Source: Candidatus Desulfarcum epimagneticum (lineage in GTDB: Bacteria > Desulfobacterota > Desulfobacteria > Desulfobacterales > CR-1). Taken from it: DNA of 64,000 nucleotides. The DNA is taken from assembly GCA_900659855.1 (NCBI GenBank), contig CAACVI010000051.1, forward strand, positions 17,781-81,780, read 5' to 3'. The position numbers and the translations under genes are program-made. The notes under the pieces were generated by a model. That model saw only the letters and a program-made list of their open reading frames with translations. It was not told the DNA's origin and ran no database searches. Every line of letters begins with the position of its first letter. The first letter of the stretch is position 1. This document shows positions 3,167 through 58,472 of the stretch, one piece after another.

Positions 3167-4453
3167 ATGAGTTTCAGCCAAAGGGTGGAGACTTTCTCCC
3201 ACGACTATTTGAAATGCTGCGCTTACATCCGGGACTTCGGGGCCGGGGAAGATATTTTTACAAAAATGCTTTTTTCAAAGCTTTCGGCCTCCTCCCAGCT
3301 TCTGGAGGATTTCCTGGATGTGCACGGGGCGAAAAACAACCGGGACTGGTTTTACTACCGGGAGCTGGCGGCGGCGGTGAGGCATCTGAGCCTTGGGGGA
3401 TACGCCCAGAAGCATATTCTCAACCGGCTTCATTTTTATGAGCTGGAAGACGACGTGGAATTTGAGAAAGACAGCCGAAAGACCCGGAATTTTTTCACCC
3501 GGACCCTGCGGCAGATCGCCCCGGCCGTTCTGGAGGAGGCCGCCGCGCTTCAGATACCGGCCCCGGCCGACACGTTCTCCGAGGCCGATTTTCCCCCGGT
3601 CATGTCCGATTCGGAAATGCTGGCGGACAATGTGGACAGCGGCATGGAGAAGCAGCGGGGCAAAGACCTGGTGAAGATCGCCGGGGAGTTTTTAAACATC
3701 GCCCGGCATTTTGACGAGCTGGAGTTCTACGAGCCCTTTGACCTTCAAAAGATCATGTCCATTGTGCCCGACCGGGTCAACGAGGTGGAGATCCGGACCT
3801 TTGAGATGCGGACCCACAACCTCCAGTCTTCCTTTGACACCTACGTGGCGCTGGGGGGCCTTAAAACCGGCGCGAAAAATTTAAGGAAGCTGCGGGGGAC
3901 CTTTTCCGTGGCCCTGCATCTTCTGGAGATCATGGGGCGGCTGCTTCATTTTTATGAGCGCCACCTGTCCAAGGACGTTTACAAAGACGTGTTTAAAAAG
4001 GCCCGGCGTCGCCTGAAAGACCTGGCCAGCGCCGAGACCCTCCTGGACCGCACCATCAATTACGGCCTTTACTATGTCTGTTATTTTCTTTCCTCCGGGA
4101 AAAATCCGGCCAAAGCCATTTTAAACGAAAACATCGAGCGTTCCTCCATCGAGGTGGGGGTCCCGGTCAACCTGGGCTTTCACAGCCGCCCCAGCCTTCT
4201 GGTGGCCCGCATTGTCCGGCATTACGGGGGCGAGGTCACGCTTTGCGCCGGGGAAAGGCGTTTTGACGCGGGCAGCGTTCTGGACATCCAGTGGGCCGGG
4301 GGGCTGATTCGAAAGGAAAACATTGACCGGGTGATCTTTGAGGGCGACGCCCGGGCGCTTCATGACATCGAGATACTGGCCGGGGTCAACTACGGCGAGG
4401 ACACCTTCGGCAAGGGCGTCCCCCTTCCCCGGGAGCTTGAGTACCTGAGATGA
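3167..4453 (+). CDS. protein with unknown ~330-aa helical N-terminal region fused to a C-terminal HPr-like phosphocarrier domain
   Basis: C-terminus IEVGVPVNLGFHSRPSLLVARIV...RFDAGSVLDIQ matches the HPr fold signature (His15-type GxHxRP and Ser46-type region). Its stop overlaps the ispD start (ATGA at 4450-4453). Confidence 0.7.
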   Translation: MSFSQRVETFSHDYLKCCAYIRDFGAGEDIFTKMLFSKLSASSQLLEDFLDVHGAKNNRDWFYYRELAAAVRHLSLGGYAQKHILNRLHFYELEDDVEFEKDSRKTRNFFTRTLRQIAPAVLEEAAALQIPAPADTFSEADFPPVMSDSEMLADNVDSGMEKQRGKDLVKIAGEFLNIARHFDELEFYEPFDLQKIMSIVPDRVNEVEIRTFEMRTHNLQSSFDTYVALGGLKTGAKNLRKLRGTFSVALHLLEIMGRLLHFYERHLSKDVYKDVFKKARRRLKDLASAETLLDRTINYGLYYVCYFLSSGKNPAKAILNENIERSSIEVGVPVNLGFHSRPSLLVARIVRHYGGEVTLCAGERRFDAGSVLDIQWAGGLIRKENIDRVIFEGDARALHDIEILAGVNYGEDTFGKGVPLPRELEYLR

Positions 4454-12261: not shown

Positions 12262-13254
12262 CTAAAATACTTCCTCTTTCAACATACAGCAGGCCACCCG
12301 TCGCAGGGGCGCGCCGTCCCGGTCGTATTCCAGGTTTTCGGGGCTGATGATTTTGTTCATCACGCACCCTTCCGGGATGTCCAGCAAAAAGAGGTCCCCT
12401 TCATGGACGGGGGGGCGCGCTTTCAGATCGTTTCCGTCAAACTCCATGGCGTGAATGGGAAAATCCTCGCACAGCGGGCACCGGTACACCCTTTTATTGG
12501 GAAACACAAAATAATTCTCGGCCACCCGCCCCGCGCATTCAAAGACCTCGCCGGGATCCAGAAACACCTTTGGATAGCAGGCCGGGATTCCCAGCCGGGC
12601 CGACTCCGCCGCCGCCTTTGGCGCCGCGTCCTGCCACTGTCTCCATGAGACCTGCCGGTCGGCGCCTTTTCCGGACGATGCCCTGCCCCGGACCCCCAAA
12701 AACTGGATGAAGAATTTCTCGATCCCCAGGTTCGCCGCCAGCTTCGGCATTCTTTCAAGCTCGTGGATGTTTTCCGCGCCCACCGTGTAGATCAGACTGG
12801 TGGAAAATCCCTTTGAAACCGCCTTTTTAATCCCGGCCACGCATTTTTCAAAAGACCCTTTTCCCCTTAACCGGTCATTGGTTTTTTCCGACGCGCCGTC
12901 CAGGCTGAAACTGATGAAATCCGCCTCCCCGGGCTGGATTTTAGACAGGATGTCGTGAAACAGGTACCCGTTGGTGTCGATGGTCACCGAATCAAAGCCC
13001 AGGCCCCTGGCCTTTTTCACCGCCAGATGCAGGTCCGGATGCAGGGTGGGCTCCCCGCCCAGAAATATCACGTTGGCGTTTTGGGCCCGGGCCGCGAAGG
13101 TCTCCAGCCAGGACTCGATGACGCCGATGGGAAGCGTGTCTTTCCCGTGCTGATCCCGGTTGATGTAGCAGCGCCGGCACGACAGGTTGCAGTCGGTGAG
13201 GATGTGAAAGAAAAGGTTGGCGGCGTTTTTTTCAAATGCGACGGTTTTTTTCAT
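12262..13254 (-). CDS. radical SAM protein with Cys-rich SPASM-like C-terminus
   Basis: CNLSCRRCY (CX3CX2C) near the N-terminus. C-terminal cysteines (CYPKV...ECAG...RCPLCEDF). Start chosen at MKKTVAF; the ORF could extend to 13326. Confidence 0.8.
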   Translation of the reverse strand: MKKTVAFEKNAANLFFHILTDCNLSCRRCYINRDQHGKDTLPIGVIESWLETFAARAQNANVIFLGGEPTLHPDLHLAVKKARGLGFDSVTIDTNGYLFHDILSKIQPGEADFISFSLDGASEKTNDRLRGKGSFEKCVAGIKKAVSKGFSTSLIYTVGAENIHELERMPKLAANLGIEKFFIQFLGVRGRASSGKGADRQVSWRQWQDAAPKAAAESARLGIPACYPKVFLDPGEVFECAGRVAENYFVFPNKRVYRCPLCEDFPIHAMEFDGNDLKARPPVHEGDLFLLDIPEGCVMNKIISPENLEYDRDGAPLRRVACCMLKEEVF

Positions 13255-13339
13255 TTTTTTTCGGGGATTTTTTTCATTTTTTTTGTTTGGGCCATTATAT
13301 AGCCCCAACCATGATGGGTTTGTCAAGAGATTTTGAAGA

Positions 13340-13929
13340 GCCGACGCGGCCGGGTTTTGCCTTGAATATGGCGATGGGATTGATTATAAGACAAATAATT
13401 GTGTGGCATGTTTTTTTGCGGGACATTTTGGATATGGATGGGATAATCCTCATCCATCGGCGCGGCATGGCGTGGATTTCGGCTGTAGGGGCGACCCTTG
13501 CGGTCGCCCTGGTTCCGTCGACCCGGAACGAAATTTTGGAAAAAAATGACCATAAATCCCGGGCACATTCGCCATGATGCCGGATCATATCAATGCGTTT
13601 GGGCCGCCCGTAGGGGCGAAAAAATTTTCGCCCCAATGAATCCACATCCGCATAAAATTGTGTTTGAATGTCGGGGGTTCGCCAGGATGGGCGGTTCTCG
13701 AACCGCCCCTACGGATGCCGGGGCAAAATATTTTTGGGTTGGGAATTTTGGATATGGGTGGGATGAATCCCCATCCATCGGCCCGGCATGGCGTGAATTT
13801 CTGCTGTAGGGGCGGTTCGCGAACCGCCCCCGTTCGGTTTGCCCCGAACGGAATTTTCGGGCAAAATGGAAATGGAACCGCGCCAGGGAAAACATTTCAA
13901 AAACACATCGACCTCATAACGGGAGGGGC
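13340..13929. repeat. REP/BIME cluster, left part (REP-A family hairpins GTAGGGGCG-N-CGCCCC)
   Basis: Hairpins at 13485-13510, 13610-13634, 13689-13712 (inverted, ...CCCCTAC) and 13806-13830. They are embedded in an iterated ~330-bp composite unit. Confidence 0.85.
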
Positions 13930-14499
13930 ATGGCGTTGGCATATCACCCGGAAAAACATCATCGCAGGTCTTTGCGTCTGAAGGCTTATGATTATTCAAA
14001 ATCCGGCGCCTATTTTGTGACAATATGCGCCCGCAATCGGGAATGTCTTTTCGGCGATATCACGGACGGGCGAATGGCACACAGCGATTCGGGCAGAATC
14101 GCATCGGAATCATGGCTGTGGATGGGCGATCAATACGGGCATGTGATTTTGGACGCATGGACCATTATGCCCAATCATATGCACGGCATTGTGTTCATTT
14201 CGGGGGGTAGGGGCGGTTCGCGAACCGCCCCTGTTTCGTCAACCGCCGCGCCTCGTTGCATCTTGCCGGTGAATCGCCGCAAACCGTTGGGGAGATTGAT
14301 CGGATCATTTAAAACCGTTTCAACCAAACGAATCAACCAGATGCGGGACACGCCCGGGGAAAAAATATGGCAGCGCAATTATTACGAACACATTATCCGG
14401 AATGACAAAGAATTGACCCGCGTTCGGGAATATATTGATCAGAATGTGTTAAAATGGGAATGGGACCGTGAAAATCCCCATTCCCGGGCGTTTTCTTGA
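13930..14499 (+). CDS. REP-associated tyrosine transposase (RAYT-1), IS200/IS605 TnpA-like (Y1 HUH)
   Basis: HUH motif MPNHMHGIV and Tyr motif [12 protein letters not shown]. Flanked by a forward REP (13806) and an inverted REP (14537). RBS GGGAGGGG upstream. Confidence 0.85.
   Translation: MALAYHPEKHHRRSLRLKAYDYSKSGAYFVTICARNRECLFGDITDGRMAHSDSGRIASESWLWMGDQYGHVILDAWTIMPNHMHGIVFISGGRGGSRTAPVSSTAAPRCILPVNRRKPLGRLIGSFKTVSTKRINQMRDTPGEKIWQRNYYEHIIRNDKELTRVREYIDQNVLKWEWDRENPHSRAFS
14207..14231 (+). repeat. REP-A hairpin inside the RAYT-1 ORF (in frame)
   Basis: GTAGGGGCGGTTCGCGAACCGCCCC is identical to the free REPs at 13806-13830 and 14653-14677. It is translated as GRGGSRTAP. Confidence 0.9.
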
Positions 14500-14976
14500 A
14501 TGGAATTGTGTTTGAATGGCGGGGGTTTGCCGAGAAGGGCGGTTCACGAACCGCCCCTACGGATGCCGGGGCAAAATGTTTTTGGGTTGGAATTTTTCGA
14601 TATTCGGGCGATAATACCCATCCATCGGCCCGGCATGGCGTGGATTTCGGCTGTAGGGGCGGTTCGCGAACCGCCCCTGTTTGGCCTGCCCCGAACGGAA
14701 TTTTTGAAAAAAAATGACCATAAACCCCAGGCACATTTTCCACGACGCCGAATTATATCCATGCGTTTGGGCCGCCCAAGGGGCGAAAAATTTTTCGCCC
14801 CTGCAATGGTTCCACATCCACATGGGGTTTTTATTTGAAGGTCGGGGTCCGCCGATAGGGGTGTTCACCGAACGCCCCTACGGATGCCGAGGCGGAATGT
14901 TTTTTTGCGGGGATTTTTGAATACTTGGGCGATAACGCCCATCTGTTGGCCCGGCGCGAATTTCGGCCGTAGGTGC
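14500..14976. repeat. REP/BIME cluster, middle part
   Basis: Hairpins at 14537-14560 (inverted), 14653-14677, 14778-14801 and 14857-14881 (inverted). A truncated left REP arm GTAGGTGC lies at 14969-14976. Confidence 0.85.
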
Positions 14977-15135
14977 ATTTTTTGGTTGGAGATATTTTCG
15001 GTTGAGGGTGTGCGGGGATTCAGCCAGTTCCTCACCCCGGATTTCCGCTATTTTGTGTTTTATTTCGTCCAGCCCAGAGTCGGCGGGCAAAAAAACCGTC
15101 CCCATTTCCCCTGAAATTCCATGGGGAGAGATACG

Positions 15136-15435
15136 TCAAGCCAAACGATTTTTCCATTTGTCAGGGCTTTGGGAAGTATGAAAGACACTGTATATGATTA
15201 TTTTCCCATCCATATGCTCGTAAAAGACCGCATATGGAAACCGCCTTGTCAATGCCCGACGGTAGTCTTTGTATATCTTGGCGTAAAGCCCGGGATTGCG
15301 GCAAATGGTCTGAACAACGGTATCCACACAGGTTAGAAAATCTTCACCCAAACCATGCCTGCGATCTTCATACCAACTGTATGCCTCATCAAGGTCCCGC
15401 AACGCCTCTGGAGCGATGATCGGCTCAGCGATCAT
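15136..15435 (-). CDS. ParE/RelE-family type II toxin
   Basis: 99 aa. EALRDLDEAYSWYEDRRHGLGEDF...RRFPYAVFYEHMDGKIIIYSVFH is typical of ParE/RelE plasmid-stabilisation toxins. It overlaps the upstream antitoxin gene by 11 nt. Confidence 0.8.
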   Translation of the reverse strand: MIAEPIIAPEALRDLDEAYSWYEDRRHGLGEDFLTCVDTVVQTICRNPGLYAKIYKDYRRALTRRFPYAVFYEHMDGKIIIYSVFHTSQSPDKWKNRLA

Positions 15436-15649
15436 AGCGGCTTCTGATTTTGCGTTTCACTTCATTCCATGAAAGCCCCGAAGCGGGCCTGCTCATCAGG
15501 TTCATTTTCCTGCGCGTCAACTCTTTCTTTTGCCAATCATGCACGGGAACATCCGATGGCGTCCCGGCCAGATCGTCCCACAGGTCTTCAACCAGCTGCA
15601 GCTTCTCCGGCGGGGTCAGGTCGAATATGGATATGTCATTTGTGTTCAT
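15425..15649 (-). CDS. addiction-module antitoxin (putative addiction module component type)
   Basis: 74 aa. LTPPEKLQLVEDLWDDL...W is the hallmark of the antitoxin family partnered with ParE/RelE toxins. Confidence 0.75.
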   Translation of the reverse strand: MNTNDISIFDLTPPEKLQLVEDLWDDLAGTPSDVPVHDWQKKELTRRKMNLMSRPASGLSWNEVKRKIRSRYDR

Positions 15650-15688
15650 TTGACGTTTCTCCTTTCATTATTCAAGGTCATGACAAAA

Positions 15689-15717
15689 ACAATATCAACG
15701 TCGGCAAAAATTGTCAA
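15689..15717 (-). promoter_or_regulatory. sigma-70-like promoter for the TA cassette (TTGACA-17-TATTGT on minus strand)
   Basis: Reverse complement reads TTGACAatttttgccgacgttgaTATTGT, about 40 nt upstream of the antitoxin ATG. Confidence 0.45.
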
Positions 15718-15754
15718 TTGCCGCGTGAATAAGCGCTGAATGTCTGAAATGTGT

Positions 15755-16100
15755 CCGCCCCTGTCTGGCCTGCCCGGAACGGAATTTTTGGGTAAAATGT
15801 TTTTGGGTTGAAATTTTTCGATATTCGGTCGATAATGCCCATCCATCGGCCCGGCATGGCGTGGATTTCGGCTGTAGGGGCGAAAAATTTTTCGCCCCTA
15901 CAATGGTTCCACATCCACGTGGGATTTTATTTGAAGGTCGGGGTCCGCCGACAGGGGCGTTCGCCGAACGCCCCTACGAATGCCAGGGCAAAATGTTTTT
16001 TGTTGGAAATTTTTGATAGGGCGGGATAATACCCATCCATCGGGTCGGCGCGGGGGTTCGCCGAAAAGGGCGGCCACAGGGGGCCGCCCCTGCAGGCCGT
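15755..16100. repeat. REP/BIME cluster, right part
   Basis: Begins with an orphan right REP arm CCGCCCCTGTCTGGCCTGCCCGGAACGG. Hairpins at 15874-15901 (GTAG on both sides), 15953-15977 (inverted) and 16068-16090. Confidence 0.85.
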
Positions 16101-50270: not shown

Positions 50271-50333
50271 GTGGCGACCGAAATCGCGGGTGGCGACCGA
50301 AATCGAGGGGGGCGACCGGCCGGTCGCCCCTAC
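50271..50333. repeat. REP-B hairpin (inverted, GTAG on minus strand) preceded by two 19-nt half-arm iterations
   Basis: gtggcgaccgaaatcgcgg / gtggcgaccgaaatcgagg / GGGGCGACCGGCCGGTCGCCCCTAC (50309-50333). Confidence 0.85.
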
Positions 50334-50508: not shown

Positions 50509-50604
50509 GTAGGGGCGACCGGCCGGTCGCCCTTTGTGTCAGGCCGGTCGCCCTTTGTGTCAGGCCGGTCGCCCTTTGTGTCAGGCCGGTCGCCCTTTGT
50601 GTCA
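50509..50604. repeat. REP-B hairpin followed by 4 x 21-bp tandem half-REP array
   Basis: GTAGGGGCGACCGGCCGGTCGCCC, then ggccggtcgccctttgtgtca repeated four times (50521-50604). The last unit contains the hsdR stop codon (50602-50604). Confidence 0.92.
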
Positions 50605-53600
50605 GGCCGCCGCCCACTCTTTACAAAGAACTTCCGCCTGCTCCAGAACGGTTTGGGTCGCTTTTTCCTGTTTGTCCGGGGGGTACCCATATTTACGCAG
50701 AATCCGTTTCACGATCACGCGGATCTGGGCGCGGGCGTTTTTTCGGACAGTCCAGTCTACCGTCACGCTCCGTCGAACCGCTTCGACCAATTCGTGGGCA
50801 ATCGTTTTGAGTGTCTCATCCCCCAGAACTTTAACGGCGCTGTCGTTGACTTCCAGCGCGTCGTAGAAGGCGGTTTCGTCGTCGGTCATGCCGAGATCAT
50901 CGCCCCGCCGTTGAGCCTCGAGCATCTCTTTTGCCAATTTGATTAATTCCTCGATGACCTGCGCGGCCTCAATTGAGCGGTTCCGGTACTTCCGTATGGC
51001 CTTTTCCAGCATCTCCGAAAAGGAGCGCGCCTGAACGACGTTTTTGCGGGAGTTTGTCTTGATTTCATCGTTCAGGAGTTTTCTCAGCAGTTCCACAGCG
51101 AGGTTCCGGTGTGGAAGCCGCCGCGCCTCCTGCAGGAAGTCGTCAGAAAGAATTGAGATATCGGGTTTCTTCAGGCCCGCCGAGGCAAAAATATCGACGA
51201 CCTCTTCAGGCGCCACCGCTCTCGACACCAACTGGCGGATCGCGGTGTCCATCTCTTCAGGGGTTTTTCCCTCGCCTCCTACGGTGTTTTTGGCCAACCC
51301 GGCGCGAACTTCCTGGAAAAATCCCACTTCATCGCGAATCTTCAGGGCCTCTTCATGCGGGACAGCGAGGGCAAATGCCTTCGACAGCGCCGTGACCTCT
51401 GTCAGATATCGCTTTTTTCCATCCACCAGCTGAAGGATATGTTCCATAGCGGCCGCGATGCCGTTGATACGCTTCGCTGGTTCCGCTTTGAGAATTGAGG
51501 GGTAATCGAAACCGTGAAACATGGAAACGAGGACCTCGAACTTTTCCAGCAGCACAGCGACCGCCTCTTCCTGGTTGACTGCGGCCTCGCCGCGACCGCC
51601 CGCTTCGGTATAGTCCGCAAGAGCTCCTTTTAGCTGATCCGCAATGCCGAGATAGTCAACGATCAATCCGCCCGGCTTGTCTTTGAACACCCGGTTGACC
51701 CGGGCTATCGCCTGCATCAGGCCGTGCCCTCGCATCGGCTTATCCACGTACATTGTGTGCAGCGACGGGCAGTCGAATCCGGTCAACCACATATCCCGCA
51801 CGATCACCATCTTCATTGGATCGGCCGGGTCTTTGAACCTCTTGGCCAGGGCCTCGCGTCTCGGCTTGCTGCGAATATGAGGCTGCCATTCAGATCGGTC
51901 CGAGGCGGAGCCGGACATGACGATCTTCAGCGCGCCTTTGCCGTCGTCATCGCTATGCCAACCGGGCCGCAGGGGCGGATTATTATCCGTTCCCACACAG
52001 ATTGCGTTGTAAATATCCACGCATATTCGACGACTCATGCAGATAACCATGGCCTTGCCGTCTAAGGCCTGCAGGCGTCCTTCAAAATGGGTGACGAGAT
52101 CTTCCGCAACGAGGGCGATTCGCTTTTCCGCGCCGACCATCGCTTCAAGGGCGGCCCACCTGGCGCGTAGTTTCTGCTTATCCGCCTCTTCTTCGCCTTC
52201 TGTGATTTCCTCGAATTCAGGATCGATTTTCGGTTTTTCATCTTCTTTCAAATCAACCTTCGCCAGTCTGCCTTCATAAAAAATGGGAACCGTGGCGCCG
52301 TCCTCGACCGCCCGCAGGATGTCGTATCTGTCAATGTAGTCGCCAAAGACAGCGGGCGTGCTGCGGTCATCTCGCTCAATGGGCGTGCCCGTGAATCCTA
52401 TGAAAGAGGCGTTCGGAAGGGCGTCATGCATGTGGCGCGCAAATCCGTCGATGAAGTCGTACTGGCTCCGGTGCGCTTCATCGGCAATGACCACGATATT
52501 GCGCCGGGCGGACAACTCGGGATATCCCAGGCCCCCGGCGTCGGGCAGGAACTTCTGAATCGTCGTGAAAACAACCCCGCCGGCGGGGACCTGAAGCAGC
52601 GCTTTCAAATGCTCCCGGTTTTCAGCCTGAACGGGTGTTTGCCGCAAAAGATCCTGACAGGATGAAAACGTGCCGAAAAGCTGGTCATCCAGATCATTTC
52701 TGTCGGTGATCATCAGCAGCGTGGGGTTTTTCATGGCCGGGTGGCGAATGACCTTTCCGGCGAAAAACGCCATTAACAGACTTTTTCCGCTTCCCTGGGT
52801 ATGCCAGATCACCCCGATTCGACGGTCGTCAAAGTGGTCGGATCCCGAGCCATAAGCGGCCTGCGGATCGCGGACCATAAATGGATTGCGCTCGTCATGC
52901 TCCGGGAAGCGGGCATACAGCATGTTGGGCTCCGCATCGACGCCGCATGCCGACAAGGAGCGTTCAACCGCTTTGTTCACGGCATGGAACTGGTGATAGG
53001 CCGCCGCTTTTTTGGAGATAACGGCCCCGTCGTCGTCAAACACGATGAAATTCAACACAAGGTCGAGGAAACGCCGCTTTTCGAAGACTCCCCTCAGCAG
53101 TGTTTCAAGTTCCGCAGAGCCTTTCAGGGCGACTTCTTTGCCGTCAATCGCGCGCCATGGCATGAAGCGGTCCCAGCCGCTTGTGAGCGTTCCGATTCGG
53201 GCTTTCAGGCCGTCGGAAATGACAAGCATCTCGTTATGGATGAAGAGGCCGGAAATATCGCTTTTGTACGTCTGAAGCTGATTAAAGGCGTGACGAATGG
53301 TCGCCTTTTCATTCGTCGGATTTTTGAGTTCGATCACGCCCAGGGGCAGTCCATTGACAAAAACCACCATATCGGGCCGCCGGGTTCTGCGATCCTCGAT
53401 GACGGTAAATTGATTGACGACGAGCCAATCATTGTTCTCCAGCTTTTCAAGATCAAGCGGCCATACCTTGTCGTGGACCTCTCCGTCCTGACGCATATAG
53501 GAGATATCCACACCATCGGTCAGCATTCGATGAAAACGCCGGTTGTTCTCGATCAGGCTCGGCGAATCGGCCCGCGCTATTTTCCGGACTGCCTCTTCAA

Positions 53601-53799
53601 TGGAATCCGGCGGGATGTCCGGGTTGATGTTCTCCAGGGCGGTTTGAAGCCTTCCGACCAAAACGACCTGATCGTAATCGTCGCGTTCCCGCGCCGGGCT
53701 GTCCGGGCTGATGTCCGGGCCGAAGGCCGTGGCCCAGCCCAGGGAGGAAAACCAGTCAAGGGCGGTTTGTTCCAGTGTGTTTTCGTTGATTTGGGTCAT
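50602..53799 (-). CDS. hsdR: type I restriction enzyme R subunit
   Basis: 1065 aa. N-terminal nuclease region and SF2 motifs (TQGSGKS, DEAH box ADEAHRSQ). Confidence 0.95.
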
Positions 53800-54434
53800 G
53801 GCGCGGCGTCGTATGAAACAGAGGGTTCATGTGTCGCATGGGCGTCGGGATTTTCCCGGTCCAAATTCCAGTTTTTCGGATTGTTGATGATGTATCGCCG
53901 GATGCGGTTTAATTCGTTTTCGTTTCGGATGATGTGTTCGTAATAATTGCGCTGCCATAGTTTGCCGGGGGTGTTTCGGATTTGATTCACGCGTTTTGCG
54001 GCGGCCGATTTAAAACCGGCCAACAGCGCCCCTATGGATTTGGGGCGCGGACCCGGCGTTGCGGGAATGACCGGCGATTTGGGGAGGACCGGTATTGCGG
54101 GGGCGACCGGAATTGCGGGGGCGAATGTTGATTTGGGGGCGACCGGCCGGTCGCCCCTACCAGGACCATTGATCATGATGATTCCGTGAATGTGATTTGG
54201 CATGACCACCCATTCATCCAGTTCGATTTCATCCCGAATTTCACCGGATTTGACCCATTCGTCCGCGACAATTTCCCCGGCCTTATTCAGCGCCATGTTC
54301 CCGTCCGTGATTTCGCCGAACAGGCATTCCCGGCGGCGGGCGCAGACGGTGAGGAAATAGGCCCCGGCCTGTGAATAATCGTGTCCTTTCAGGCGGATCG
54401 ACCGGCGGTGATGGATATCGGGATTGTATTTCAT
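53796..54434 (-). CDS. REP-associated tyrosine transposase paralog (RAYT-2) embedded in the type I R-M operon
   Basis: [12 protein letters not shown] and Tyr motif [16 protein letters not shown] stop/start overlaps with hsdS (54431-54434) and hsdR (53796-53799). Confidence 0.88.
54136..54160 (-). repeat. REP-B hairpin inside the RAYT-2 ORF (in frame)
   Basis: The coding strand reads GGT AGG GGC GAC CGG CCG GTC GCC CCC, translated as GRGDRPVAP. Three 18-nt half-arm iterations (54081-54134) encode the Pro-rich APAIPV repeats. Confidence 0.9.
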
Positions 54435-55642
54435 ATCCCGGCCTCTTTGATAAATTTCTTGGCATCCGGGACCCGCAGTTCGCCGGAAATGAGTTTGGGG
54501 AGAAGGGTGTCCCGGAGGGTTTTGAGTATTCCGTTTTCATTAGTGTTTCTATCAACTTGTTCATCGAAGGCGAATGTGATTTTTTCGAATTCGGCAATCA
54601 AATTTTCACTGGAAGAAAGCCAACGCAACCCCTCAAACTGTTTCTTATTGATGGCCCCAAATACTGTTCCTTCCGCCTCGAACCGAGCGAATCTATCGCT
54701 CAGAGTATGCATTGCATAGTATGTGTAAGAACGGCTACCTGACTTGTGGCGAATTCTGGAGACACCTCTTCCAACGCAGCATTGTTCCATAGCCATGTTG
54801 ATATCTCCAACTGGCGCGCGGACGCTGACTAAAGTGTCTCCATGATCGGCAAGTCGCTGTGGCGCCGTGCAATAGACCCTATTGGATGGATATCTAAAAC
54901 CAAAATCGCGACGTCCCTGAAAGAAGGGAAGTCCTTTTCCTGTTTCGTTATAGGTTTTCCCAGGTGGAGACTGGCCCATTGTCAGGTTAAAGTTAGAGGC
55001 AATAGTTGAGGGATTCCATCCCTTTGGAATCTCTTCCATTTCCGATTCCTCGAAACTGTCGGGAAAGAGCGAGGCGACCTCATCCGGCAAGCCCGTCGGG
55101 CGGCCTTCAGCTTTGGCGCGCGTCGGTTCGAAATCCACAAACCAGGACTTGAAGATAGCTCGGGCAGTGGCTTCCAGCGTCTGGTTCATCCGGCGGTTTA
55201 ATTCGATTTTGTCGTCGAGCGAGCCGAGGATGTGGGCTATGGTCTTTTGTTCAAATATGTTGGGTATCTCAATTTTTAATTCATGCACCGCATTTCGATT
55301 AAGACCAGGAACAGCGCTGTCTGCATTCATGTGTTCCAAATCAATTGATTTTAGTAAGTAATAAGTATAATTTAAGTCTCTGTTTTTATTTGATTTAACA
55401 TAAAATGATGTATCAATTGGCCAAAAAGGAGTTGGAGAATAATGAACGGCTCCAACGGTGCCTTTTCTTCCAACGATAATACCAGCATCATCTACTAAGG
55501 GTGTATCGTGAACTCCGACCAGACCGTTAGAACCATAAACATTAAATTTTCCTTCTGCGTTGCGTTTTTTTTGTGGAAGGCTTTTCCCATAAGCAAATGG
55601 GCAGAATTGTCCAATGGTTGTTACTCTCCATTCACTCCCCAT
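54431..55642 (-). CDS. hsdS: type I restriction enzyme specificity subunit
   Basis: Two target-recognition domains separated by conserved helices ([17 protein letters not shown]... and [14 protein letters not shown]). AT-richer than its neighbours. Start MGSEWRV overlaps the hsdM stop by 11 nt. Confidence 0.9.
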
Positions 55643-57203
55643 AACCCAAAACCTCCAAATTCCTCTTAATGGCGGCTTCGAGCCGGTGAGATTGAGCGAA
55701 CTGCTCGCGCAGCGTCGTCGAGAGTTCGGCCATCTTTTTTTCGAATGGAACGCCGTCGTCCTCGATTGCAGCCGCCCCCACATAACGGCCCGGGGTCAGG
55801 ACATAGCCGTGTTCTTTGATTTCGTCGGCGCTGACGCTCTTGCAAAAGCCGGGCGCGTCCTTGTATTCGCCGGCGTCTTTCTCGCCCCGCCAGGCATGGT
55901 AGGTGGCGGCGATCTTGTCGATTTCTTCCTCAGAAAAATTTTTGTGTGTTCGATCAATGAGGGCGCCGAGTTTGCGCGCATCAATAAAAAGGGTGTGGCC
56001 GCGCCTTTCGCGTAGGGGCGACCGGCCGGTCGCCCCCACCCCGTTCTTCTTGTTCCGGGTCATAAACCAGAGGCACACCGGAATCTGCGTCGTGTAAAAG
56101 AGCTGGCCGGGCAAGGCGATCATGCAATCCACCAAATCCGCCTCGATGATGTTCTTTCGGATTTCTCCTTCGCTTTTGGCATTGGTGGACATGGATCCGT
56201 TTGCCATGACGAAACCGGCGACGCCGGCGGGAGCCAGATGATGGATGAAATGCTGAATCCAGGCATAGTTGGCGTTTTTCACCGGCGGGACGCCGTATTT
56301 CCAGCGGACGTCCTCACGCAGGCGTTCGCCGCCCCAGTCGCTCATGTTAAAGGGCGGATTGGCGAGGATGAAATCGGCGCGGAGGTCTTTGTGCCGGTCG
56401 TTGTGGAAACTGTCCGCATGCAGGCCGCCCAGGTCGGCGTCCAGCCCTCTGATGGCCATGTTCATCATGGCCAGCCGCCAGGTGGTGGAATTGGACTCCT
56501 GACCATAAATGGCGATGTCGCCCAGGCGTCCGCCGCGTTGTTCCACAAAACGCTCGCTCTGAACGAACATGCCACCCGAGCCGCAACACGGGTCATACAC
56601 GCGGCCCTTATAGGGCTCGATCATTCTGACAAGCAGTTTGACCACGCATTGAGGCGTGTAGAACTCGCCGCCGCCTTTGCCTTCCGCTGTGGCGAAGCGA
56701 CCAAGGAAATACTCGTACACGCGGCCCAGAATATCTTTTGACCTGGCTTCATCATCCCCGAGACCGATCTTGCTGATGATATCGATAAGCTCGCCCAACC
56801 GGTGTTTGTCCAGAGAAGGGCGCGCATAATCCTTGGGAAGAACGCCTTTAAGCGTTGGGTTCTCTTTTTCAATGGCCACCATCGCATCATCAACAAGTTT
56901 GCCGATGGTCGGCTGTCTGGCGTTGTCCTTCAGCGCCTTCCAGCGGGCCTCTCCCGGCACCCAGAAGATGTTGGCCGCCGCGTATTCGTCCCGGTCTTCC
57001 GGGTCGGTGTATTCCGTATCTTTCGTGGCCTCCAGGCGCTTGTGTTTGGCCTGGAAAGCGTCTGAGATGTATTTCAGAAAAATTAAACCGAGAACCACAT
57101 GTTTGTATTCGGAGGCGTCCATATGTCCTCTGAGCTTGTCCGCAACCGTCCACATCTGGTTCTCAAAGCCGAGATTGGCGCCGTTTCCTTTTTTTTTCGA
57201 CAT
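55632..57203 (-). CDS. hsdM: type I restriction enzyme methyltransferase subunit
   Basis: HsdM N-domain, motif [12 protein letters not shown] and motif [10 protein letters not shown]. Confidence 0.95.
56012..56036 (+). repeat. REP-B hairpin inside the hsdM ORF (opposite orientation, in frame)
   Basis: GTAGGGGCGACCGGCCGGTCGCCCC on the plus strand. Read on the minus strand as ...[13 protein letters not shown]... between TRNKK and [11 protein letters not shown]. Confidence 0.9.
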
Positions 57204-57346
57204 GTGTTCCTTTCATGTATTTTGACATCCGACATGGCCGCTTTTAAACCGCATTCCATATTAAATTTAAATATTTATGAAATGGAACATTATCAAAAAA
57301 ACATGGAATGTCAATCATTTCCCTGTTTTTTCCATAAACGGGCGCA

Positions 57347-57395
57347 GGGCGACCGGCCGGTCGCCCCTACCAAGGGCCATTGATGATGATTTCAT
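57347..57395 (-). repeat. REP-B hairpin plus about 25 nt of RAYT HUH-side remnant
   Basis: The minus strand reads aatcatcatcaatggcccttgGTAGGGGCGACCGGCCGGTCGCCC. Compare the RAYT-2 coding strand atcatcatgatcaatggtcctgGTAGGGGCGACC. Confidence 0.7.
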
Positions 57396-58076: not shown

Positions 58077-58451
58077 ATGAAAAAAGGAGTCCGAAAAATA
58101 CCCGGACCGGCCATTATCGAGGCCGCGGGAACGCCGCCCAAGCGCATTGAGGAATACATCGGAAGGGTGAATTCCGGGGACCGGGAGGTGAGCGTGGCCC
58201 GGATGGTCAGCCCGGCGGGGTGGACCGAGCCGGCCCAGCGGCCTGAGTTCACGGAATACACCGTGGTCCTCAAGGGGGTTTTAAAGGCGGTTTTTTCAGA
58301 CAGGGAAGTGGAGATCAGGGCCGGCCAGGCCCTGGTTGTGGAAGCGGGGCGGCGGGTTCAGTACAGCTCCCCCCATAAGGGGGGGGCCGAGTATATCGCC
58401 GTTTGTCTGCCGGCTTTTTCCCCGGAGACCGTCGGCCGGGACCCTGGGTAG
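58077..58451 (+). CDS. cupin-domain protein
   Basis: 124 aa with a beta-rich pattern (EYTVVLKGVLKAVF...EVEIRAGQALVVEAG). The stop TAG is the TAG of a REP GTAG. Confidence 0.6.
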   Translation: MKKGVRKIPGPAIIEAAGTPPKRIEEYIGRVNSGDREVSVARMVSPAGWTEPAQRPEFTEYTVVLKGVLKAVFSDREVEIRAGQALVVEAGRRVQYSSPHKGGAEYIAVCLPAFSPETVGRDPG

Positions 58452-58472
58452 GGGCGACCGGCCGGTCGCCCC
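58448..58472 (+). repeat. REP-B hairpin between convergent genes
   Basis: GTAGGGGCGACCGGCCGGTCGCCCC. Confidence 0.9.

Follow-up and report, generated by a model that had tools for sequence, protein, structure and literature searches.

REP-associated tyrosine transposases (RAYTs, or TnpAREP) bind and cleave the GTAG-bearing hairpins of repetitive extragenic palindromes (REPs) as single-stranded DNA (ssDNA). The present analysis concerns two such genes, RAYT-1 and RAYT-2, in a 64,000 nt stretch of DNA from Candidatus Desulfarcum epimagneticum (assembly GCA_900659855.1, contig CAACVI010000051.1, positions 17,781–81,780; this whole stretch is termed the window), each of which contains a REP within its own reading frame.

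The closest described system is TnpAREP subclass 2.4 of Quentin, Siguier, Chandler and Fichant (2018; BMC Genomics 19:475, PMC6006769), which corresponds to RAYT Group 4 of Bertels et al. (2017) and for which in-frame REPs between the HuH motif and the catalytic tyrosine (Y) were reported as a “unique feature.” In Table 1 of that paper, subclass 2.4 is given the motifs NH[IFV]H, WQ, and YIxNNP, and a median length of 194 amino acids (aa); its HuH-Y distance has a median of 88 aa. A highly variable insertion with short DNA repeats is found between β3 and αC, and was placed away from the active site by a homology model. The REPs of this subclass are long, with G-C pairs at the base of the stem, and often have a double foot (GT[AG]G ... 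C[TC]AC). Those found inside the genes were read as insertions, probably of little impact. Frozen synonymous sites, the use of two reading frames and statistics on covariation of internal and flanking copies are not reported in the available parts of the paper. A first-pass annotation of the window, in which the arrangement was pointed out from the DNA letters, knew of no formal description of it; such a description had in fact been provided in 2018 by Quentin et al., as a feature unique to subclass 2.4.

No mention of REPs inside RAYT genes was found in the passages on RAYTs of Di Nocera, De Gregorio and Rocco (2013; BMC Genomics 14:522), nor on searching Bertels et al. (2017) and Corneloup (2021). 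The mode of REP copying was described as still unknown (Corneloup, 2021). No later paper on the function of in-gene REPs was found in the literature searched, where only Quentin et al. (2018) describe the arrangement.

Identity of the Two Genes

The genes and their intragenic REPs are located as follows (window coordinates):

13930–14499, plus strand, RAYT-1 gene, intact open reading frame (ORF) of 189 aa, TnpAREP subclass 2.4-type HUH/Tyr enzyme
14207–14231, plus strand, RAYT-1 intragenic REP, GTAGGGGCGGTTCGCGAACCGCCCC, a GTAG foot and 22-nt palindrome encoding (G)RGGSRTAP
53796–54434, minus strand, RAYT-2 gene, intact ORF of 212 aa
54136–54160, minus strand (coding strand), RAYT-2 intragenic REP, GTAGGGGCGACCGGCCGGTCGCCCC, encoding (G)RGDRPVAP

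The two proteins share 49% amino-acid identity (BLASTP), and that of RAYT-1, the translation of which includes HMHGIVFISGGRGGSRTAPV, has a match of 100% identity among the proteins of Candidatus Desulfarcum epimagneticum. Both combine an HUH motif on a strand with a C-terminal catalytic tyrosine. The motifs are NHMH at residue 82, WQ at 147, and YIDQNV at 168 in RAYT-1, and NHIH at residue 80, WQ at 160, and YIINNP at 181 in RAYT-2, with HuH-to-Y distances of 83 and 98 aa, respectively; H83, H85, and Y168 are invariant in 44 homologs. The first-pass annotation had placed the REP between the HUH motif and the tyrosine. This position stands, but the catalytic residue is the tyrosine of YIDQNV/YIINNP (compare Y115 of Escherichia coli TnpAREP) and not one of those in NYYEH.

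Both proteins score above the cutoff of 23 bits for Pfam Y1_Tnp (27.5 bits for RAYT-1 and 26.2 for RAYT-2) and below the cutoff of 80 bits for the NCBIfam equivalog REP_Tyr_transpos (60.7 and 67.1 bits, respectively), a profile which was probably built from proteobacterial RAYTs. When a profile of the 44 homologs was compared with PDB sequences, the sole match was E. coli TnpAREP (4er8), with the HUH motif and the tyrosine of YIxxNP aligning with its H-u-H and catalytic Y115. The 4er8 residues W94, Q95, E100, H101, and R104 (segment WQPRFWEHAIR of 4er8), which contact the GTAG, correspond to W147, Q148, E153, H154, and R157 of RAYT-1, and the contact residue W99 is replaced by Y in the aligned segment. 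The fold was examined for RAYT-1 only. Its AlphaFold (AF2) model has a mean predicted local distance difference test (pLDDT) score of 83.7, and the first-ranked Foldseek match to it was 4er8_A (E = 2.5e-7, probability 1.00, TM 0.54/0.62), followed by the TnpA proteins of ISDra2 and IS608. In this model the REP-encoded residues (~91–113) form a coil of pLDDT 49–56, located between the HUH strand (83–90) and a helix (120–139).

Because of the Y1_Tnp scores above threshold, the best match to 4er8, the contact residues, the motifs, the protein lengths and the internal REPs, the two genes are almost certainly diverged RAYT/TnpAREP genes of subclass 2.4 (RAYT Group 4), each with the hallmark in-frame, GTAG-footed REP in the DNA for the disordered β3-αC loop that follows the HUH motif. 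Also in favor of this assignment is an entry in Table S1 of Quentin et al. (2018), where GTAGGGGCGACCGGCCGGTCGCCCCTAC, the double-foot form of the RAYT-2 REP, is given for a subclass 2.4 gene of Chloroflexus aggregans. Both ORFs had already been recognized as RAYT/TnpAREP-type HUH-Tyr enzymes at the first pass, and correctly so.

The Intragenic REPs and Their Free Copies

The internal REPs start 8–9 codons past the second His of the HUH motif and, as was noted earlier, share the codon phase GGT AGG GGC with the GTAG on the coding strand in both genes. They differ only in the inner stem (GGTTCG/CGAACC vs. GACCGG/CCGGTC). Both are single-foot copies, with the 3′ CTAC changed to CTGT in one of them and to CCAA in the second. 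Folding energies as ssDNA were −12.4 kcal/mol for GTAGGGGCGGTTCGCGAACCGCCCC and −11.7 kcal/mol for GTAGGGGCGACCGGCCGGTCGCCCC, and ~ −22 kcal/mol for both hairpins as RNA. Chance matches to either 25-mer pattern amounted to 0.00 in 100 dinucleotide-preserving shuffles of the window. Outside the two genes, the following copies of these variants are found:

13688–13830, inverted REP pair upstream of RAYT-1, with a minus-strand copy at 13688–13712 (inverted, 2 mismatches to GTAGGGGCGGTTCGCGAACCGCCCC) and a plus-strand copy at 13806–13830 (exact)
14536–14677, inverted REP pair downstream of RAYT-1, with a minus-strand copy at 14536–14560 (inverted, 2 mismatches) and a plus-strand copy at 14653–14677 (exact)
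50309–50333, minus strand, free REP of the RAYT-2 variant, exact
50509–50533, plus strand, free REP of the RAYT-2 variant, 1 mismatch
56012–56039, plus strand, free REP of the RAYT-2 variant, exact, with a near double foot (GTAG...CCAC)
57346–57370, minus strand, free REP of the RAYT-2 variant, 1 mismatch
58448–58472, plus strand, free REP of the RAYT-2 variant, exact

The RAYT-1 gene had been said to hold a REP identical to the free copies on either side, and these are indeed exact at 13806 and 14653. For RAYT-2, identity with six other REPs had been claimed; the shared variant was recovered, with five other copies rather than six, three of them exact and two with a change of 1 nt. Within the 64-kb window neither variant was found inside the cluster of the other, even at 3 mismatches, as had been stated. 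The variant had been said to covary with its surroundings, and each gene does contain the dominant local variant. The cluster at 13.4–16.0 kb is mixed; no fewer than three others of the GTAGGGGCG type (GCGACCCTTGCGGTCGC, GCGAAAAATTTTTCGC, and GCGTTCGGCGAACGC) are included in it.

Conservation of the Hairpin among Homologs

A protein search returned 3594 homologs. Alignment of the 44 closest showed almost no variation in the peptide GRGGSRTAPT. The stretch of DNA from the HUH to the WQ motif was then read at 80 homologous loci from more than 20 phylum-level lineages, including Nitrospirae, Chloroflexi, Planctomycetota, Cyanobacteria, Bacteroidota, Acidobacteriota, Atribacteria, Zixibacteria, and several proteobacterial classes. 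A perfect hairpin (stem of at least 8) is present in the HUH-to-W segment of 67 of the 80 genes (84%), compared with 7 of 80 for the remainder of the ORF. Hairpin density (stem of at least 9) is 4.06 per kb in the HUH-to-WQ segment vs. 0.285 per kb outside the genes. Most of these hairpins are perfect palindromes of 28–34 nt with the layout GTAG-stem-stem-CTAC, and 37 of 65 internal hairpins are double-foot. The commonest internal palindrome, GTAGGGGCGGTTCGCGAACCGCCCCTAC, corresponds to the RAYT-1 REP with a double foot and has the same sequence in Nitrospirae, Chloroflexi, Planctomycetota, Gammaproteobacteria, Cyanobacteria, and Calditrichaeota. The start of the hairpin varies from 5 to 37 codons past the HUH motif, and no conserved target sequence was found flanking the hairpins of these homologs.

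Within the subclass the internal hairpin is near-universal and fixed in position, situated in the segment coding for the loop. Absence of a palindrome from close orthologs, which the first-pass annotation had named as a refuting result, was not what the 80 loci showed. The earlier view that the arrangement is systematic and not accidental was right, given the survey of homologs, and a recent chance insertion peculiar to the source genome is ruled out by the presence of hairpins at the same site in many phyla.

Two observations on individual homologs may be added. On a Chloroflexota chromosome (L005), two RAYT copies ~1.5 kb apart (2754–2940 and 4240–4426) have near-identical linkers and the same internal 28-mer. 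In six homologs of alignment A1 (P0002, P0004, P0006, P0010, P0022, and P0038), the N- or C-terminal tails GAVREPPL or VGAVREPPLR correspond to the flanking REP read in another frame; the gene calls of these homologs apparently run on into flanking REPs.

Constraint on the DNA and Not the Peptide

The same palindrome can be read in two frames in different homologs. The 28-mer GTAGGGGCGTATGGCCATACGCCCCTAC encodes VGAYGHTPLQ in one gene (L042) and GRGVWPYAPT in another (L047), and likewise GTAGGGGCGTATTGCAATACGCCCCTAC encodes CRGVLQYAPT (L015) or VGAYCNTPLQ (L059). Across homologs the three possible phases of the GTAG are occupied 24:24:0, and the empty class is the frame in which TAG is read as a stop. 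Among 21 genes, selected solely by the encoded peptide GGSRTAP, only three sites differ over the 21 coding nt, two of which are the bases at the center of the loop, while 12 of these genes differ at the first four-fold degenerate site beyond the palindrome. Genes with the exact 28-mer have a four-fold third-position identity of 0.913 within the palindrome vs. 0.348 in the rest of the gene, at an amino-acid identity of 57%. Complementarity is kept among 34 distinct variants, with 74 double-sided changes compared with 19.9 ± 3.6 in shuffles. The paired changes are concentrated in the inner stem, and slid registers score at most 0.104 vs. 0.494. From the use of two frames, the 24:24:0 phase distribution, the frozen synonymous sites and the paired stem changes, it follows that the constraint on the internal hairpin acts on the DNA and not on the protein.

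This bears directly on the alternative that the peptide GRGGSRTAPT, with its variants, is itself functional, for instance as a loop in contact with DNA, and that the palindrome is incidental. Such a motif could be argued from the closest clade, in which at least 90% of the 44 proteins retain each of R94, S97, R98, A100, and P101. However, one palindrome yields unrelated peptides in its two frames, the synonymous positions are frozen, disorder is predicted for the segment, and GSRT is replaced in RAYT-2 by DRPV, precisely as required by its REP variant. The use of two frames and the pattern at synonymous sites in effect rule out a conserved protein motif, and we regard it as extremely improbable.

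Match with Neighboring REPs and Dispersal

The internal variant is the same as that of a neighboring hairpin in 30 of 60 loci, these being the loci with an internal hairpin and any hairpin outside the gene, compared with 5.3 ± 1.9 expected by permutation (maximum of 15 in 2000). With the commonest variant left out, the match is seen in 19 of 41 loci vs. 1.68 expected. It follows that the covariation of internal and surrounding variants, proposed from the two genes of the window, is general. At RAYT-1 itself, the internal copy and the free one at 14653 have 30 nt (GTAG...CCCCTGTTT) in common, among them a derived 3′ CTGTTT that stands where homologs have CTAC and is lacking in the free copy at 13806. 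This shared derived sequence points to the internal copy having recently exchanged with a free one.

In a scan of metagenomes, the exact 28-mer GTAGGGGCGGTTCGCGAACCGCCCCTAC was found in at least 120 contigs (loci L081–L200). The matches listed comprise 128 copies, of which 2 lie in a RAYT linker, 7 on RAYT-bearing contigs, 89 are free and 30 are too near a contig end. The 28-mer is a real dispersed REP, and the possibility that it is merely a gene-internal signature is ruled out by the number of contigs and by the 2 of 128 listed copies that are in a RAYT linker. Among the matches listed, stop-free stretches of at least 150 codons hold 41 of 85 judgeable copies, and those of at least 250 codons hold 21 of 85. 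Many of these 28-mers may therefore be in frame within other genes, although high G+C content could inflate the counts.

Possible Roles of the Intragenic REP

The arrangement raises the question of why the gene of an enzyme should carry the enzyme's own substrate, whether as a seed copy, an autoregulatory site or a tolerated passenger. The roles tentatively suggested at the first pass were autoregulation, a master copy for the spread of REPs and a driver of co-evolution between variant and enzyme. We propose that the embedded hairpin would be an element at the level of DNA, with the encoded peptide as a by-product. It would occupy the sole site in the gene that tolerates almost any peptide, and is readable in both of the frames that avoid the TAG stop hidden in GTAG. 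The intragenic copy would be a genuine member of the REP family acted on by the enzyme, and could stay perfect and matched either through RAYT-dependent copying or gene conversion that homogenizes the family, or through selection for recognizability. Enzyme and substrate would then be physically inseparable, and the gene would always carry a seed copy of its own REP. That the internal REP is the true substrate of the enzyme, kept matched by copying, conversion or direct selection and inherited with the enzyme as a unit, is the explanation we favor, with moderate confidence. A stronger form of it can be entertained only tentatively. Here the intragenic REP would be an ancient, selected and near-obligatory cis-element, serving as master or seed copy and possibly as a feedback site, with its stem under purifying selection at the DNA level in more than 20 phylum-level lineages and its inner stem co-evolving with the specificity of the enzyme. 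If true, this would go beyond the published account, which is limited to the presence of REPs with little impact.

A number of points weigh against the favored explanation. The binding, cutting or copying of the internal hairpin by the RAYT, the homogenization and the seed function are all inferred. The frozen synonymous sites could also stem from direct selection on a regulatory hairpin. The paired fraction of stem changes is partly circular, as the sequences compared were picked for being hairpins. The hairpin is not obligatory, with 13 of the 80 homologs lacking it at this site. As a counter-example, a cyanobacterial homolog from Coleofasciculus (L030, 3506–4925) has no internal hairpin and yet at least five REPs of the GTAGGGGCGCA(C/T)G... 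type around it. Approximately 20 genes with an internal hairpin have no REP-like hairpin within ±4 kb, and for these homogenization with nearby copies is not demonstrable. Finally, the loci were drawn from metagenome-assembled genomes (MAGs), in which repeats often collapse or break contigs.

The reading given by Quentin et al. (2018) is essentially that REPs were inserted, possibly repeatedly, into a flexible surface loop, where they are harmless and have no role. It accords with the known presence of in-frame REPs in genes of other kinds (Di Nocera et al., 2013), with the 41 of 85 free copies in long stop-free stretches among the matches listed, with the 13 hairpin-less genes and with the highly variable length of the linker, in which the hairpin start ranges over 5–37 codons. 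The reiterated arm fragments seen in linkers (see below) also resemble mutational debris. However, a neutral 28-mer would be expected to decay at amino-acid identities of 48–88%, and its synonymous sites are instead near-invariant in more than 10 lineages, frozen beside a four-fold site that varies in 12 of 21 genes. Insertion without a role also sits poorly with an occupancy of 84% at one site compared with 7 of 80 genes over the remaining ORF and with the absence of any conserved target sequence around the hairpins; moreover, 28 nt is not a multiple of three, so that a simple insertion would break the frame. We consider this reading unlikely.

Selection on the stem rather than the peptide is a feature expected if the intragenic REP is kept as a control of the RAYT's own expression. 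The RAYT might bind or cut the hairpin where it is extruded, on the non-template strand or the lagging-strand template, giving negative feedback, or a stable hairpin in the mRNA might restrict translation or guide processing of the transcript. Folding of the hairpins is stable, at −22 to −24 kcal/mol for the RNA and ~ −12 kcal/mol for the ssDNA, and in both window genes the GTAG is on the coding (non-template) strand. The match seen with the enzyme's own REP family is one that feedback through RAYT binding would call for. RAYTs are typically single-copy domesticated genes (Bertels et al., 2017), and a possible lowering of RAYT expression by REP hairpins was proposed earlier (Di Nocera et al., 2013). 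However, generic RNA structure need not track the local REP variant. The symmetric double foot of most homologs (37 of 65) carries no strand information, and the genes without a hairpin are also difficult to reconcile with regulation. The internal hairpin was not called as terminator-like in a consensus scan, and homologs have no T-run after the hairpin, so that an intrinsic terminator was rejected. Overall, a regulatory role for the hairpin appears rather improbable. With two enzyme and hairpin pairs in one genome, the enzymes having 49% identity and the hairpins differing only in the inner stem, the window offers a compact test system for the determinants of RAYT specificity and for distinguishing a seed from a regulatory role.

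Surroundings of the Two Genes

RAYT-1 sits in a dense, apparently non-coding array (13236–16060) with composite repeat units at a spacing of ~321 nt, which holds at least four different GTAGGGGCG-type REP variants. Directly on either side of the gene are units of ~210 nt, direct repeats that are 85–89% identical (repeat families D3 and D4) and that each contain an inverted REP pair; the upstream pair is a piece of the unit that is repeated 3′ of the gene. Inverted REP pairs are found on both sides within ~250 nt, which is the organization of a REPtron. Farther along the array, the double-foot REP GTAGGGGCGAAAAATTTTTCGCCCCTAC at 15874–15901 recurs inside RAYT genes, as their internal REP, in one MAG of Nitrosomonas and one deltaproteobacterial MAG (L051, 4255–4282 and L070, 4347–4376). 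Its presence predicts either that the rest of the source genome holds another RAYT with that variant or that the REP family is an orphan.

RAYT-2 is located within a type I restriction-modification operon (50602–55783, minus strand), with the following neighbors and linker repeat:

54431–55783, minus strand, hsdS, upstream of RAYT-2, Pfam Methylase_S
50602–53799, minus strand, hsdR, downstream of RAYT-2, HSDR_N, SWI2_SNF2, and T1RH-like_C
54053–54124, minus strand, 18-nt tandem unit in the RAYT-2 linker, ~4 copies (TRF), consisting of the REP 3′ arm CCGGTCGCCCCC and GCAATW

The gene overlaps hsdS (54431–54434) and hsdR (53796–53799) by 4 nt each, and judging from these overlaps the arrangement looks translationally coupled. 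No free REP directly adjoins RAYT-2 in the window; REPs of its variant lie 1.6–4.3 kb away on both sides, the nearest being past the neighboring hsdS or hsdR. The tandem array lies just downstream of the internal REP. Reiteration of the arm is seen in homologs too, with RTAPT present three times in P0004 and GGSRTAPT duplicated in P0008 and P0106. The repeated REP arm in linkers suggests slippage or processing at the hairpin.

Comparison with Known Systems

The TnpA proteins of the IS200/IS605 family (IS608, ISDra2) resemble the window genes in being Y1 HUH transposases with one-strand hairpin recognition, a short 5′ guide and hairpins linked to the gene. Their hairpins, however, are at the left and right ends of the insertion sequence (IS), outside the ORF, and the elements occur as multiple near-identical copies. 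The window genes are only 49% identical to each other and are bounded by REP arrays and not by IS ends, and RAYT-2 is wedged between hsdS and hsdR; an IS200/IS605 insertion sequence was rejected on these grounds.

E. coli TnpAREP/RAYT (YafM, PDB 4ER8; subclass 2.2, Group 2) shares the HUH/Tyr Y1 fold and the residues contacting the 5′ GTAG, and its gene, like RAYT-1, is flanked by cognate REPs (REPtron). It differs in having no REP within the coding sequence, long REPs with bulges, and a C-terminal extension that is absent from subclass 2.4, and its identity to RAYT-1 is ~20%. The GTAG-tagged palindromes of Di Nocera et al. (2013) are also found in frame in genes, where they are presumably tolerated in loops or linkers. 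Those host genes (e.g., of replication and repair) have no connection with REP metabolism, and orthologs mostly do not share the position. By contrast, the subclass 2.4 genes encode the presumed REP-processing enzyme, the position is kept across phyla, and the variant tracks the local REPs.

The likeness to subclass 2.4 can be followed feature by feature. RAYT-2 (NHIH/WQ/YIINNP, 212 aa) matches the motifs exactly and RAYT-1 (NHMH/WQ/YIDQNV, 189 aa) is a near match, its close homologs having NHLH and YIxNNP. The enlarged HuH-Y spacing (83 and 98 aa), the coil insertion and the 18-nt tandem repeats of RAYT-2 are all in agreement, as is the patchy taxonomic spread over many phyla. The stems in the window begin GGGGC...GCCCC, and the copy at 15874–15901 is double-foot, with that at 56012–56039 nearly so. 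Because the arrangement was published in 2018, the observation is a further example of a known arrangement and not a new one. Candidatus Desulfarcum epimagneticum had not been examined before for the subclass 2.4 hallmark, and the observation amounts to a correct rediscovery of it, in genes that lie outside the data set of Quentin et al. (2018) and show no difference in kind from the subclass described there.

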